A stretch of DNA of 64,000 nt, taken from positions 333,805 to 397,804 of the forward strand of contig CAWALT010000003.1 in NCBI GenBank assembly GCA_963782975.1, given 5' to 3'. The first letter of the stretch is position 1. Each line of letters starts with the position of its first letter. The translations under genes and the position numbers were made by a program. This DNA comes from an uncultured Alphaproteobacteria bacterium (GTDB lineage Bacteria > Pseudomonadota > Alphaproteobacteria > 43-37 > CAWALT01). Shown here piece by piece: positions 16,804 to 22,294 of this stretch. The notes beneath the pieces were generated by a model, which was not told where the DNA came from, ran no database searches, and saw only the letters and a list, made by a program, of their open reading frames with translations.

Positions 16804-17964
16804 ATGCGCACCCATGAATTTATCTTGCCGAAAGGGGAGACCTATATGTGTGGTCACTCTCTAGGGCCTATGCCAATGGCAGCGCAGGTTAGGGTGAGCC
16901 AAGCACTTCAAGATTGGCAGCGTTGTGGGGTAGGGGCTTGGAATAAAGCCGAATGGATGAGTCTACCATATAGCGTCGCTGACAAGATAGCACCATTGAT
17001 AGGGGCCTTAGAATCGGAAGTTGTCCTAAGTGACTCGACCTCTGTTAATTTATTTAAAGTACTTATGTCAGCCCTCAAGTTGCAGCAAGCTCGTAAGGTC
17101 ATTCTTACAACAGAGGATAATTTCCCGGCAGATTTATACATTGCCCAAGGAATTGCTGCGTTTGCAGAAGGCGTGACTCTTAAAACTGTTCGACCCGAGG
17201 AGCTTCTGGAGCACATAGACGAACATATAGCTGTCGTGATGTTGACCCATGTAAATTACCGGGATGCATCTATGTACGATATGAAAGTTATATGTGAACA
17301 TGCCCATAAGTATGGGGTTTTCACCGTTTGGGATTTATCACACAGTGTGGGTATTGTTCCCTTAGCTTTAAATGAATGCCGAGCGGATTTTGCCGTTGGA
17401 TGTACATATAAATATTTAAATGGAGGACCTGGTAGCCCCTCTTTTGTCTACGTTCATGAGAGACATGAGAGACGAATAACAAGCCCCATTTGTGGATGGA
17501 TAGGACACGACAGCCCCTTTGCTTTCATGCGAGAGTACCATGCCACAGGAAGCGCTTGTTATATTGGGGGAACTCCTTATGTTCTTAGCATTAAAGGGTT
17601 AGAAGGTGCTTTGCACGTTTTTGATCATCTCCCCTTAGAGGATTTATATGCACGCACTTTAAACTATTCCTCTTATTTAATTAATGCTCTTGCCGATCTT
17701 GGTTTGCGGGTTCTTACTCCTAAAACGGGTAATAAAGGAGGGCATGTTGCCTTCTTACATGAACATGGATACGCCTTCTCTCGGGCGCTTATTGATCTGG
17801 AGGTAACCGGAGATTACCGTACTCCCGATCTAATCAGGTTATGTATTAATCCTCTTTATCTTACTCTCGACGATATTAATAAGTGTATCAAACAAGTGGC
17901 CTATGTTTTGGAGCAAGAGCTGTATCTCCTACCAAAATATCAGCAACAATTAAAGGTAACGTGA
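16804..17964 (+). CDS. kynU: Kynureninase (PLP-dependent, converts L-kynurenine to anthranilate).
   Basis: DFAVGCTYKYLNGGPGSPSFVYVHE is a PLP-lysine motif characteristic of kynureninase. There is a strong RBS (aggagg) 7 nt upstream. Confidence 0.85.
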   Translation: MRTHEFILPKGETYMCGHSLGPMPMAAQVRVSQALQDWQRCGVGAWNKAEWMSLPYSVADKIAPLIGALESEVVLSDSTSVNLFKVLMSALKLQQARKVILTTEDNFPADLYIAQGIAAFAEGVTLKTVRPEELLEHIDEHIAVVMLTHVNYRDASMYDMKVICEHAHKYGVFTVWDLSHSVGIVPLALNECRADFAVGCTYKYLNGGPGSPSFVYVHERHERRITSPICGWIGHDSPFAFMREYHATGSACYIGGTPYVLSIKGLEGALHVFDHLPLEDLYARTLNYSSYLINALADLGLRVLTPKTGNKGGHVAFLHEHGYAFSRALIDLEVTGDYRTPDLIRLCINPLYLTLDDINKCIKQVAYVLEQELYLLPKYQQQLKVT

Positions 17965-17965
17965 T

Positions 17966-18967
17966 ATGGAAAGATATATCGAAACATTATTAAAGGGCAA
18001 CAGCCTATCACGGGAAGAAAGCTATAGCTTACAGGCAGGCTTGCAAGATGCTCCTCGTGAGCAGCAAGCGGCTATCCTGGCACTTCTTCGCGTTAAGGGA
18101 GAGACAGTCGATGAACTCTTGGGAGCCCAGGATTTTTTATTGAAGCATGCCCCCCAGGTAGAATGTCCATTTGACGCCATCGATATGGTCGGGACAGGCG
18201 GTGATAAAAGTGGCACATTCAATATATCCACAGCAAGTAGTCTCATTGTGGCAAGTTGTGGCGTCTGGGTGGCTAAACATGGGGGAAGAAGTTCAACAAG
18301 CCAATCGGGAAGCATGGATGTTGTAGAATGTTTGGGTTTGCGTCCAATGGACACCCTGGAAGCGGTAAAGGCCAGTCTTCACTCACATCGCTATGCTTAT
18401 TTGTCTGCTCCTTTATTTAACCAGGCTTTAAAATCTTTTGGGCCTTTAAGGAAAGCGTTAGGTTTTCCTACTTTATTCAACATTGTAGGGCCCTTAGTTA
18501 ACCCTCTCCAGCTAAAGCGTCAAGTTATTGGAGTATATTGCAAAGATCTCATAAAAAAGGTGAGTGAGGTTTTAAAAATTAATGGGTCATGCCATGCACT
18601 CGTCGTACACTCGGAAGATGGGTTAGATGAGCTGAGCATCAGTGCTCCAACGCACATGGCTGAATTAAAGGATGGGAAGATCGAAGAGTATGTGGTCGAT
18701 CCTTCTGAGGTTGGCTTGCCTTTTGCTTCTCTTCATGAAGTAAAAGGTGGCGCCCCTCGAGAGAATGCGAAGATTATTAGACGTATTTTATCTGGAGATA
18801 TCCAGGGGCCACCTTTCGATATCCTTGTTCTTAATAGTGCTGCTGGCCTTCTTGTTGCTGATAAAGTCAAAAATTTAAGGGAAGGAGTCAAGCTGGCAAG
18901 AGACGCTATCGTTTCAGGCAAAGCTCAAGCTTTATTAAACAAATTAACTCAGAGGGAGCCTTCGTGA
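17966..18967 (+). CDS. trpD: Anthranilate phosphoribosyltransferase.
   Basis: DMVGTGGDKSGTFNIST and KHGGRSSTSQSGSMDVVE motifs. The start overlaps the kynU stop (TGATATG). Confidence 0.9.
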   Translation: MERYIETLLKGNSLSREESYSLQAGLQDAPREQQAAILALLRVKGETVDELLGAQDFLLKHAPQVECPFDAIDMVGTGGDKSGTFNISTASSLIVASCGVWVAKHGGRSSTSQSGSMDVVECLGLRPMDTLEAVKASLHSHRYAYLSAPLFNQALKSFGPLRKALGFPTLFNIVGPLVNPLQLKRQVIGVYCKDLIKKVSEVLKINGSCHALVVHSEDGLDELSISAPTHMAELKDGKIEEYVVDPSEVGLPFASLHEVKGGAPRENAKIIRRILSGDIQGPPFDILVLNSAAGLLVADKVKNLREGVKLARDAIVSGKAQALLNKLTQREPS

Positions 18968-19740: not shown

Positions 19741-20344
19741 AATTTGCGGGGTAACCACTTTAAAAGATGCGCTCGTTATAGCTCAAAACAATGCCTGGGC
19801 AATTGGGTTTAATTTTTATAAGAAATCATTACGCTATATTGAACATCGAGACGCAAGCGATATCATGCGCCAGCTTCCATGTTCCCTTGTAAAGGTAGGC
19901 ATTTTTATTGAGGAGGCTTCCAACGTCATTATTAAGGGGCTTGAAGATTTGGGCTTGGATATAGCTCAGGTATATGAGGATAAAGATGTGCCAAAAATAT
20001 ATAAGAAACGCATGATCTTATCTCTCCAAGTGGAACGGGAGGAAGGCCTCCCCTCGCCAACTGTCTTGAAAGAATATGCGTATATCTTGTTAGATGCGCC
20101 AAGAAGAAAGGATGGATTGATGGGGGGTACTGGTCGACAAGCCAATTGGGGATTGGCAAAGACATTAGCGAGAAACTACCAATTAATCCTCGCAGGCGGG
20201 TTAAAGGCGGAGAGCGTGAAAGAGGCAATCCACGAGGTGCATCCTTTTGCCGTGGATGTGGCAAGCGGTATAGAACAGGTTCCAGGTATAAAAGATCACT
20301 TATTAATCAATCAATTTCTAGAGGCGTGTAAAGATGCGAGGTAA
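19718..20344 (+). CDS. trpF: Phosphoribosylanthranilate isomerase.
   Basis: [11 protein letters not shown] at the N-terminus; 208 aa. Confidence 0.8.
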
Positions 20345-21515
20345 AAAAGGGTATTTTGGAAAATATGGAGGATGCTTTGCTCCTGAGACATTAATAGCTC
20401 CGCTTGAGGAATTGGAGAAAGCCTATAAGGCAGTTAAAGAGGACCCAAATTTTCATCAAATGCTATCTAGTTACCTTAAAGATTATGTGGGCCGACCAAC
20501 GCCTCTTTATTTTGCAAGGCGCCTAAGTGAGCACCTCAAAGGAGCGCGCATCTATCTAAAACGCGAGGATTTGACTCATACAGGAGCCCATAAAATTAAT
20601 AATACTATAGGACAGGGCCTGCTTGCTAAATTCATGGGGAAGACACGCCTCATTGCTGAAACCGGTGCTGGCCAACATGGGGTGGCGACGGCAACCATAG
20701 CGAGCCTTTTAGGTATGGAATGTGTCGTGTATATGGGGGCTATTGATATGGAAAGGCAGCATCTCAATGTCGTAAGGATGCGTGTTTTGGGCGCGAAGGT
20801 GCACCCCGTGACATCGGGTTCGCAGACCTTAAAAGATGCAACGTCAGAGGCGATGAGGAACTGGGTAAGCAATGTGCGTGAGACTTATTATGTATTGGGT
20901 TCAGCTCTTGGTCCCCATCCTTACCCAACCATCGTGCGTGATTTTCAAACGATTATAGGACAAGAAACAAGGAGCCAGATTCAAGAAATACTCGGTCAAC
21001 TTCCCAATGAGTTAGTTGCATGTGTAGGTGGTGGAAGTAATGCTCTTGGGTTGTTTTATCCTTTTCTGGAAGAGGCAAATATAAAAATGACAGGTGTTGA
21101 GGCGGGTGGTACAAGCCTTGAACTTGGGTGCCATGCCGCAAGATTTGCTGGTGGAAAGCTTGGTGTGTTGCAAGGAACTAAGAGTTATCTCCTTCAAGAT
21201 GAGGACGGCCAAGTTGCCGGTACGCATAGCATCTCAGCAGGACTTGATTACCCAAGTATTGGTCCAGAGCATGCCTATTTGCATGACATGGGCCGCGTGA
21301 AGTATGTCAATGTTGGGGACGCAGATGCTCTAAAGGCGGCTTTTCTCCTTGCTCAGTTGGAGGGAATTATCCCAGCCCTTGAAAGTGCGCATGCCTTGGC
21401 TTATGTCGTACGTGAAGCGCCGCATCTGTCTCAAAATTCGATTTTATTGATGAACCTATCGGGTCGCGGGGATAAAGATGTTGAAACGTTAGCAAAGTAT
21501 TTGGAGAAAAGATGA
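20334..21515 (+). CDS. trpB: Tryptophan synthase beta chain.
   Basis: [12 protein letters not shown]-lysine motif and GGGSNA loop. Confidence 0.95.
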
Positions 21516-22294
21516 AGATACGTAACGCTTTTAACCAAGGGAAAGCTTTGTTTGTCCCTTTTATTATGGCAGGCCATCCAAATCGACAAGAATCGACTCA
21601 AGCTATGATCGCTTTAGTTGAAGCGGGAGCAGATATAATAGAAGTCGGTGTTCCCTTTTCTGATCCTGTGGCGGATGGCCCGATCAATCAACGTGCTGCA
21701 GAAAAGGCCCTTGGTAATGGCACAAATTTAACCAAGGTATTTGAACAAGTTGCTGAAGTACGAAGACGGGGTCGCACGACGCCTTTCCTCTTATTTAGTT
21801 ACCTGAACCCTATCTTGGCTTTCGGGTACGAAAGGTTTGTAAGAGAAGCTAAGAACGCCGGAATTGACGGCATTCTAATTGTCGACTTGCCGCCTGAAGA
21901 GGGAGAAGATTTTTATAATTTTGTAAAGGAAAAAGGTTTAGAGGTGGTGTTGCTGGCCTCTTTGACGACGGATCAGGAACGTTATCAGCTATATCAAAAA
22001 TTAGATCCTAGTTTTGTTTACTATATCTCCCGCTTAGCGGTCACAGGGATTCAACAAGATATCCGAGAGGAGTTGAAGGGCGAGCTTTGTCAATTGCGTA
22101 CGCTGTTACCTGGCAAGAAGATAGCCGTAGGGTTCGGTATATCAACTTTAGCGCAAGCGGGTGCCGTGGCCCGCATAGCGGATGGAGTGGTGATTGGTAG
22201 TATTCTTGTTAAGACATTGGAGGAGCAAGGACTCGAACAATTTAAGGGATTAGCTAAAAGTTTAGCAGAAGTTATCTCTAGAAGCGCGCCCTAA
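21512..22294 (+). CDS. trpA: Tryptophan synthase alpha chain.
   Basis: 260 aa with a TIM-barrel TrpA signature (FIMAGHP...[14 protein letters not shown]). The start overlaps the trpB stop by 4 bp. Confidence 0.9.

Follow-up and report, generated by a model that had tools for sequence, protein, structure and literature searches.

The DNA analysed here, a 64,000-nucleotide stretch (hereafter the window) of contig CAWALT010000003.1 from an uncultured alphaproteobacterium (GCA_963782975.1), contains an operon in which a kynureninase gene precedes genes of tryptophan biosynthesis. Six consecutive open reading frames (ORFs) on the plus strand (16804-22294) encode, in order, kynureninase (KynU; EC 3.7.1.3), TrpD, TrpC, TrpF, TrpB and TrpA (Table 1); all six match their NCBIfam and Pfam profiles from end to end, and none contains an internal stop codon. 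The coordinates agree exactly with those of a preliminary description of the locus, and together with the profile matches they bear out the six-gene operon kynU-trpDCFBA and the gene identities that it proposed. The trpF ORF opens at a TTG codon (19718), with the NF002298 match beginning at residue 5 of the TTG-initiated ORF; the ATG at 19730 is the likely start. Overlaps of 4-23 bp had been described at every junction. This is correct for trpD/trpC (4 nt with a GTG start, 1 nt with an ATG start), trpC/trpF (11 nt with the ATG at 19730; 23 nt only with the TTG at 19718), trpF/trpB (11 nt) and trpB/trpA (4 nt), but not for kynU/trpD, where stop and start codons are separated by a single nucleotide (TGA-T-ATG). 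The junction spacing throughout is compatible with co-transcription and translational coupling.

Table 1. Features of the window and of related loci (related loci in their own numbering; nt, nucleotides; aa, amino acids; MFE, minimum free energy; SBP, substrate-binding protein; MAG, metagenome-assembled genome; LRR, leucine-rich repeat)
Feature	Position	Strand	Remarks
kynU, kynureninase	16804-17964	+	TIGR01814 247.4 bits (cut-off 246.4); Pfam KYNU_C and Aminotran_5; AGGAGG Shine-Dalgarno sequence upstream
trpD, anthranilate phosphoribosyltransferase	17966-18967	+	TIGR01245 344.9 bits (cut-off 199), profile positions 1-329 of 330
trpC, indole-3-glycerol-phosphate synthase	18964-19740	+	NF001377 224.8 bits; Pfam IGPS 229.3 bits
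trpF, phosphoribosylanthranilate isomerase	19730-20344	+	NF002298 162.2 bits; Pfam PRAI 101 bits
trpB, tryptophan synthase beta	20334-21515	+	TIGR00263 604.9 bits (cut-off 392)
trpA, tryptophan synthase alpha	21512-22294	+	TIGR00262 214.8 bits (cut-off 102); Pfam Trp_syntA 258 bits
Promoter-like site, TTGACA-18 nt-TATAGT	16241-16270	+	11 of 12 consensus positions; 41 nt 5′ of the leader ORF
Leader hairpin enclosing the leader ORF, putative attenuator	16309-16414	+	MFE -30.7 kcal/mol, z = -3.57
trpL-like leader ORF	16311-16361	+	MATRAIKMLAKNGWWR, then stop; 16 codons; tandem Trp codons at 16350-16355 (codons 14-15)
Second small ORF with tandem Trp codons	16411-16539	+	Ends SLVSLWWPVGQN, then stop; UGGUGG overlaps a GC hairpin, UGGCC-GGUG-GGCCA
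Related locus L081 (GCA_964651735.1)			SBP (PF04392)-ABC ATPase-permease-kynU-trpDCFBA; trpD split
Related locus L001, Legionellaceae MAG			SBP-ATPase-permease-kynU-trpDCFBA; Trp-codon leader 5′ of the cassette, ending EKTTWRWQS
Related locus L082, Lawsonia intracellularis			SBP-ATPase-permease-kynU-trpDCFBA; Trp-codon leader 5′ of the cassette, MLLNLVIKNLIVGRWRWR
Related locus L086, Holospora curviuscula			SBP-ATPase-permease-kynU-trpDCFBA-prsA; Trp-codon leader 5′ of the cassette, MLNLVIKNLTIQGWRWP, ending IQGWRWP
Related locus L083, Rickettsiales endosymbiont of Peranema			ATPase-permease-kynU-trpDCFBA-prsA, no SBP gene; Trp-codon leader 5′ of the cassette, MLNLVTKKLITQGWRWR, ending QGWRWR
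Related locus L090, JGI MAG			SBP-kynU-trpDCFBA
Related locus L084, closest relative (68%)			kynB-kynU-trpDCFBA
Related locus L089, Berkiella aquae	5415-9176		PF04392 ABC importer-kynU; no adjacent trp genes
Related locus L088, Candidatus Aquirickettsiella gammari	8001-15511		Trp-codon (WCW) leader 5′ of the cassette, MMLFDVINTRENWCW, ending RENWCW; trpDCFBA-Trp/Tyr permease (PF03222)-kynB (cyclase)-kynU (439 aa)
Related locus L087, Chlamydiia MAG			Intact trpD, trpC, trpF and prsA, with remnants of permease, kynU and trpB around them
Four large ankyrin-repeat ORFs	4288-6642, 6904-9012, 10031-11341, 12091-13953	-	
Truncated sucB	11456-12046	+	Profile positions 53-220 of 408 only
Three tandem small ORFs (102, 90 and 71 aa)	14651-14959, 14978-15250, 15292-15507	-	Directly upstream of the leader region
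LRR protein	22725-24407	+	Directly downstream of the operon; resembles XopAC/XopL-type LRRs
lpdA, intact	24950-26362	+	13 kb downstream of the sucB fragment
Sodium:solute symporter fragments, two adjacent ORFs (209 and 144 aa)	39870-40911	-	First matches profile positions 109-325 of 406
tRNA-Leu, anticodon CAA	50529-50614	-	Sole RNA gene detected in the window (Rfam)

The 1.3 kb 5′ of kynU holds no long ORFs; it does hold a promoter-like site and a trpL-like leader ORF with adjacent Trp codons. In a consensus scan the promoter-like site was among the two best-scoring between 15000 and 23000 and the only such plus-strand site upstream of the operon; the total of sites in this region is at chance level, and only position and quality favour the one at 16241-16270. 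At least two Trp codons among the last five, as in the leader ORF, occur in 4 of the 6418 stop-to-stop segments on both strands of the whole window (0.03 per kb per strand). Only one of 200 shuffled sequences folds as well as the hairpin that encloses the ORF. Its inner stem (~16347-16369) contains the UGGUGG Trp codons and the stop codon, and is followed by a U-rich tract (~16365-16386). This arrangement suggests ribosome-mediated attenuation responding to tryptophan supply and, since the Trp-codon leader stands before kynU, the whole unit likely responds to tryptophan starvation. The leader resembles trpL-type attenuation in Escherichia coli in that a short ORF between promoter and first gene carries adjacent Trp codons, and in that a U-rich tract comes after an RNA hairpin; the window leader differs in that the Trp codons lie inside the 5′ arm of the putative terminator, one or two codons before the stop, and in that no separate 2:3 antiterminator was identified. 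Rfam, at its gathering thresholds, detected no known leader or riboswitch 5′ of kynU. The second small ORF with tandem Trp codons is possibly a second attenuator, or a product of chance; no conservation of it was found in the relatives described below. The ~260 nt that remain before kynU (16540-16800) include an ORF of 60 aa, which overlaps the start of kynU. At the other end of the operon, the terminator consensus scan, the total of which is likewise at chance level, called no terminator after trpA, where the RNA folds worse than its shuffles (z = +2.0).

KynU matches PF22580 (KYNU_C) with 63.9 bits (cut-off 27) and aligns with the Pseudomonas fluorescens kynureninase (1QZ9) across residues 4-383 (E = 2.3e-89). 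In the residue alignment K203 corresponds to the lysine that carries pyridoxal 5′-phosphate (PLP; K227 in 1QZ9), D177 and W232 to the PLP-interacting aspartate and tryptophan (D201 and W256), R345 to the carboxylate-binding arginine (R375), and W46/G256/T257 to the specificity triad W64/G281/T282; all are invariant across 32 members of the KynU clade. On mutagenesis grounds, this W/G/T triad is reportedly that of bacterial kynurenine-preferring, anthranilate-releasing enzymes, and the human 3-hydroxykynurenine enzyme is said to carry H102/S332/N333 (H/S/N) instead. KynU is thus predicted to be of the kynurenine-preferring, anthranilate-forming type, and its predicted product would be the substrate of the next gene product, TrpD. 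The window enzyme keeps all of the 1QZ9 residues named but is ~30 residues shorter (386 versus 416 aa), as a member of a ‘short’ KynU clade (378-390 aa), and its gene lies in a biosynthetic (trp) context, whereas that of 1QZ9 is catabolic (kynA/kynB).

The window has 52 ORFs with a length of 120 aa or more, and nearly all of them were scanned against NCBIfam or Pfam; the three others (two overlapping opposite-strand ORFs and one of 120 aa beside the nuo genes) are of insufficient size or in the wrong place for TrpE or TrpG. Among the scanned ORFs there was no trpE, trpG, kynA, kynB, prsA or NAD-pathway gene, nor kmo, 3-hydroxyanthranilate dioxygenase, nadC or anthranilate dioxygenase. The lack of trpE and trpG reported in the preliminary description is therefore confirmed for the 64 kb, which are also free of the kynA, kynB and quinolinate genes whose presence, according to that description, would have told against kynurenine salvage. 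Remnants of an ATP-binding cassette (ABC) importer, kynB or prsA were not detected in the window by tblastn (with three protein sets as the importer query), and the idea that the ORFs with tandem Trp codons are frame-shifted remnants of these genes was dropped, as tblastn of the upstream 1.3 kb was empty. No ORF of the size of a TrpR repressor was seen in that 1.3 kb, where the small ORFs were not scanned against family libraries.

The best matches of the window KynU (68-45% identity) are metagenomic proteins and those of Legionellaceae and Legionella MAGs, Lawsonia intracellularis, the Rickettsiales endosymbiont of Peranema, Gammaproteobacteria MAGs and Berkiella; among the matches listed, KynU of free-living bacteria, Alphaproteobacteria included, are ~37-47% identical. 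Scanning a genome collection with a KynU alignment returned, among the matches listed, mostly generic free-living kynU loci (~40% identity) together with the Legionellaceae MAG locus L001. A metagenome scan with a single KynU protein gave no match, and a plasmid database held no short-clade KynU (best match 43.8%) and thus no sign of a known plasmid as vehicle. Our literature searches on kynureninase in Lawsonia, Legionellales, Holospora and endosymbionts found no description of non-chlamydial cassettes.

Comparison of these relatives (Table 1) led us to define a cassette family, the full form of which consists of a W-x-W leader followed by ABC importer-kynU-trpDCFBA-(prsA), and which is found in Legionellales, Coxiellaceae, Holosporales, Rickettsiales-like endosymbionts, Lawsonia and Chlamydiia. 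The importer genes of this form, immediately upstream of kynU, encode a PF04392 SBP, an ABC ATPase and a BPD_transp_2 permease. The kynU-trpDCFBA linkage is kept in eight of the ten related loci, the exceptions being Berkiella (no adjacent trp genes) and the decayed Chlamydiia copy, and neither trpE nor trpG was found within 7-10 kb of the nine cassettes inspected. The tight linkage of importer and kynU suggests that the importer brings in the KynU substrate; PF04392 importers are annotated as putative Trp/Tyr systems. Berkiella has the importer-kynU pair without adjacent trp genes; the two therefore seem to form the core module, with the importer as the likeliest candidate for kynurenine uptake. 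In Aquirickettsiella the pathway seems to have been put together independently, in a gene order closer to the chlamydial layout.

The window operon shares with the importer-kynU-trpDCFBA cassettes the KynU and TrpD clades, the gene order from kynU to trpA, the compact junctions and a short leader ORF that ends in WW or W-x-W inside a hairpin. It differs in having no PF04392 importer, prsA or kynB, in the extra 440 nt between leader and kynU, and in its DNA, which is ~68% identical over ~3 kb only, mainly in trpB and trpA. WW or W-x-W leaders precede five of the related cassettes (L001, L082, L083, L086 and L088) and represent four or more independent leader lineages, whereas L081 yielded none. 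When folded individually, the leaders of Lawsonia, the Legionellaceae MAG and Aquirickettsiella adopt the same architecture (z = -3.45, -4.02 and -2.86, respectively): the inner 5′ arm contains the Trp codons, and the hairpin and U6-7 run are clearer than those of the window; the Peranema endosymbiont and Holospora leaders were folded solely within a three-sequence consensus. The three alignable leaders of relatives are nearly identical and yielded just one compensatory pair.

The six window proteins rank their relatives in much the same order: L084 comes first and L081 second, and L001 is the most distant whichever gene is compared. The nearest named relatives of TrpD are from Legionellales, Aquirickettsiella, Holospora and the Chlamydiia MAG (50-57% identity; generic TrpD at most 47%). 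Placing KynU in a tree had been proposed as a check on horizontal transfer; in a bootstrapped neighbour-joining tree the window protein falls inside the cassette clade (81%), grouping with L084 and L081 (80%) and with Legionella MAGs (86%), and the KynU of free-living bacteria, alphaproteobacterial ones included, form a separate clade (92%). The KynU of Aquirickettsiella branches as an outlier, pointing to a second and independent recruitment of kynU. At the DNA level, a single alignment of 8371 nt shows 83.9% identity between the cassettes of Lawsonia and Holospora, and those of Holospora and the Chlamydiia MAG share 89%; overall, cassette DNA, leaders included, is 80-90% identical between Lawsonia (7100-15440), Holospora (1100-10336), the Peranema endosymbiont (2800-11229) and the Chlamydiia MAG (1-5100), a span that covers Desulfobacterota (Lawsonia), Alphaproteobacteria (Holospora and the Peranema endosymbiont) and Chlamydiia. 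Such identity across phyla would reflect either very recent inter-phylum transfer or misassigned contigs. The Holospora contig has recombinase fragments upstream of its cassette and aminoglycoside phosphotransferase and acetyltransferase genes downstream.

GC content and GC at third codon positions (GC3) of the window operon equal those of the housekeeping genes in the window. Given this host-like composition and a DNA identity of only ~68%, the window copy is probably an older acquisition from a Legionellales-like donor, ameliorated to the composition of its host. We regard the operon as a probable transporter-less, prsA-less derivative of a horizontally exchanged cassette family.

Taken together, we consider it likely that the promoter, the Trp-codon leader and kynU-trpDCFBA form a single transcription unit that rebuilds tryptophan from host kynurenine. 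KynU would hydrolyse L-kynurenine, presumably taken from the tryptophan-catabolic pool of a eukaryotic host, to anthranilate and L-alanine; TrpD would join the anthranilate to phosphoribosyl pyrophosphate, and TrpF, TrpC and TrpAB would finish tryptophan, so that anthranilate synthase and a supply of chorismate would not be needed. Expression would probably be set by charged tRNA-Trp. With tryptophan scarce, a ribosome would stall on the two leader Trp codons and cover the 5′ arm of the hairpin, and RNA polymerase would read through; with tryptophan ample, the ribosome would complete the leader, the hairpin and U-tract would form and transcription would attenuate. This route from kynurenine via anthranilate to tryptophan, already put forward in the preliminary description, gains support from the KynU residues, the Trp-codon leader and the kynU-trpDCFBA linkage in the relatives. 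The substrate, the source of kynurenine, the attenuation mechanism and the direction of transfer are all inferred from sequence.

The precedent for such an operon is chlamydial. In Chlamydia caviae, in C. felis and in C. pecorum, kynU accompanies the loss of trpEG (PMC3937554; also Wood et al. 2004), in an operon headed by trpR, with the order trpDCFBA-kynU and kynU at its tail (PMC3937554); according to a 2014 review, kynU and prsA were not known in any other trp operon. The window and chlamydial operons have in common a trp operon without anthranilate synthase genes, a kynureninase gene in the same operon, the ensuing prediction of host kynurenine as the source of anthranilate, and an intracellular lifestyle of the bacteria that carry them; intact trpD, trpC, trpF, trpB and trpA with kynU, and without trpE or trpG, are all found in the window operon. 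They differ in several respects: kynU comes first in the window and near the end in chlamydiae; trpR and prsA are present in the chlamydial operon and missing from that of the window; control is apparently by a Trp-codon leader and hairpin in the window, and by the TrpR repressor in chlamydiae; and the window host is an alphaproteobacterium, with a KynU of the short clade common to the Legionellales, Lawsonia and Holospora cassettes.

Several observations weigh against kynurenine salvage by a self-regulated, transferred unit. No importer, kynB or prsA is linked to the operon in the window, which offers no evident entry route for kynurenine. KynU clears the TIGR01814 cut-off by just 1 bit. The inner hairpin of the leader is weak, with many G-U pairs and an interrupted U-tract, and was not called by the terminator consensus scan; analysis of an alternative (antiterminator) pairing was not completed, and none is demonstrated. 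The leader is also separated from kynU by ~440 nt, second tandem-Trp ORF included, to which the model assigns no role. As regards transfer, the KynU tree is a rough neighbour-joining tree with moderate support at its deep nodes, and misbinning is conceivable for some of the relatives, which are MAGs or draft contigs, among them the Holospora contig with its recombinase fragments and resistance-like genes. Finally, the window is 64 kb long, and trpE and trpG could lie elsewhere in the genome.

On this last point rests a different account, in which the operon supplies the distal steps of a complete de novo pathway, and kynU adds a second, auxiliary source of anthranilate instead of replacing anthranilate synthase. 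Split trp pathways are common, the window shows only 64 kb of a genome of at least 916 kb, and Berkiella, with importer-kynU but no adjacent trp genes on a contig of 3.4 Mb, shows that a kynU module can be an add-on. Nonetheless, we regard this account as unlikely: trpE and trpG are missing from the window as from the surroundings of the nine related cassettes, the neighbouring gene decay (sucB and symporter fragments) is typical of reduced genomes, and the sole studied precedent, in C. caviae, C. felis as well as C. pecorum, pairs kynU with trpEG loss (PMC3937554).

A catabolic KynU, serving a kynurenine pathway to NAD, anthranilate-derived signals or carbon use and placed before trpD by accident, is suggested by the linkage of kynU with kynA/kynB in most free-living bacteria, for catabolism or NAD synthesis (PMC10411912, PMC5897657), and by the kynB that adjoins kynU in L084 and Aquirickettsiella. 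It is very improbable here: the window lacks kynA, kmo, 3-hydroxyanthranilate dioxygenase, nadC and anthranilate dioxygenase; the specificity triad is of the kynurenine and not the 3-hydroxykynurenine type; linkage to trpDCFBA recurs in most of the related loci; and kynU lies 1 nt from trpD behind a Trp-codon leader, which predicts induction when tryptophan is scarce, whereas a gene for Trp catabolism would need the reverse.

The preliminary description had read the operon as convergent adaptation, which would mean that an alphaproteobacterium recruited its own kynU before its own trp genes. kynU has joined trpDCFBA at least twice, as Aquirickettsiella has a distant, 439-aa KynU at the tail of its operon with kynB and a permease, and the chlamydial operon also has kynU at its tail (PMC3937554). 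For the window, however, we give convergence very little credence: its KynU and TrpD are nearest to the Legionellales-like cassettes (55-68% identity) and do not group with free-living Alphaproteobacteria, the KynU of which are ~40-44% identical among the matches listed, all six genes co-vary with the same relatives, and the type of leader peptide is shared. Since KynU and TrpD group with cassettes of intracellular bacteria, and members of the family share 84-90% DNA identity across phyla, lateral spread is favoured over convergence. That the operon is a decaying, non-functional relic of a transferred cassette is also highly doubtful: related copies do decay (the split trpD of L081; the permease, kynU and trpB remnants of the Chlamydiia MAG) and the window copy, without importer or prsA, sits among pseudogenes, but its six full-length ORFs, catalytic residues, compact junctions, Shine-Dalgarno sequence and intact leader ORF are retained, and its housekeeping-like composition indicates long residence under selection.

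Tryptophan starvation is central to the conflict between hosts and pathogens, and the kynurenine bypass has so far been seen as peculiar to a few Chlamydia species that are confronted with mammalian indoleamine dioxygenase (IDO). With somewhat less confidence than in the salvage function itself, we incline to the view that a kynurenine-salvage cassette with its own regulation is passed horizontally between unrelated bacteria living inside the cells of protists and animals, and that the window carries an old, importer-less, ameliorated copy. If so, interception of host kynurenine would be a general and ancient intracellular strategy, neither peculiar to chlamydiae nor bound to mammalian IDO. 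This would suggest that host kynurenine is a widely exploited source of tryptophan, that the salvage trait moves as a ready-made, self-regulating module, and that kynurenine salvage predates, or is independent of, vertebrate interferon/IDO immunity. The comparison yields two candidates, an ABC importer for kynurenine in bacteria and a Trp attenuator of compact design whose Trp codons lie in the terminator arm.

The alphaproteobacterial context given in the preliminary description is borne out by AtpD, the closest named relatives of which are from Rhodospirillales and Alphaproteobacteria MAGs (~83% identity); the assignment of the host to an alphaproteobacterium without a close sequenced relative, as judged from this protein, holds. 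The atpHAGDC genes follow priA as a block of their own, upstream of which no F0-subunit genes were seen. Because of the ankyrin-repeat and LRR proteins, the sucB fragment and the symporter fragments around the operon, the host is probably eukaryote-associated and intracellular, with some genome decay. The ankyrin-repeat and LRR proteins that flank the operon are effector-like and typical of intracellular bacteria, and the symporter fragments look like a fragmented transporter pseudogene. Between the sucB fragment and lpdA lie ankyrin genes, Gly-rich genes, the kynU-trp operon and other ORFs; either the suc-lpd cluster has been split by insertions or 2-oxoglutarate dehydrogenase is decaying. 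Insertion of the kynU-trp operon into this cluster was considered; ankyrin genes and other ORFs also intervene.

The three small ORFs directly upstream of the leader region have a signal-peptide-like N-terminus followed by Gly-rich GGNGG/GGHGG repeats, and look like a family of small secreted Gly/His-rich proteins; the strand opposite them gives spurious Pro- and Ala-rich ORFs. Three further ORFs (893-2782, 3260-4117 and 9282-9923) matched no family in the NCBIfam and Pfam scans. The GC content, which averages 0.43 over the window, dips to 0.36 at 42001-44000, between the genes for a phytase-like esterase and a haloacid dehalogenase (HAD) hydrolase.

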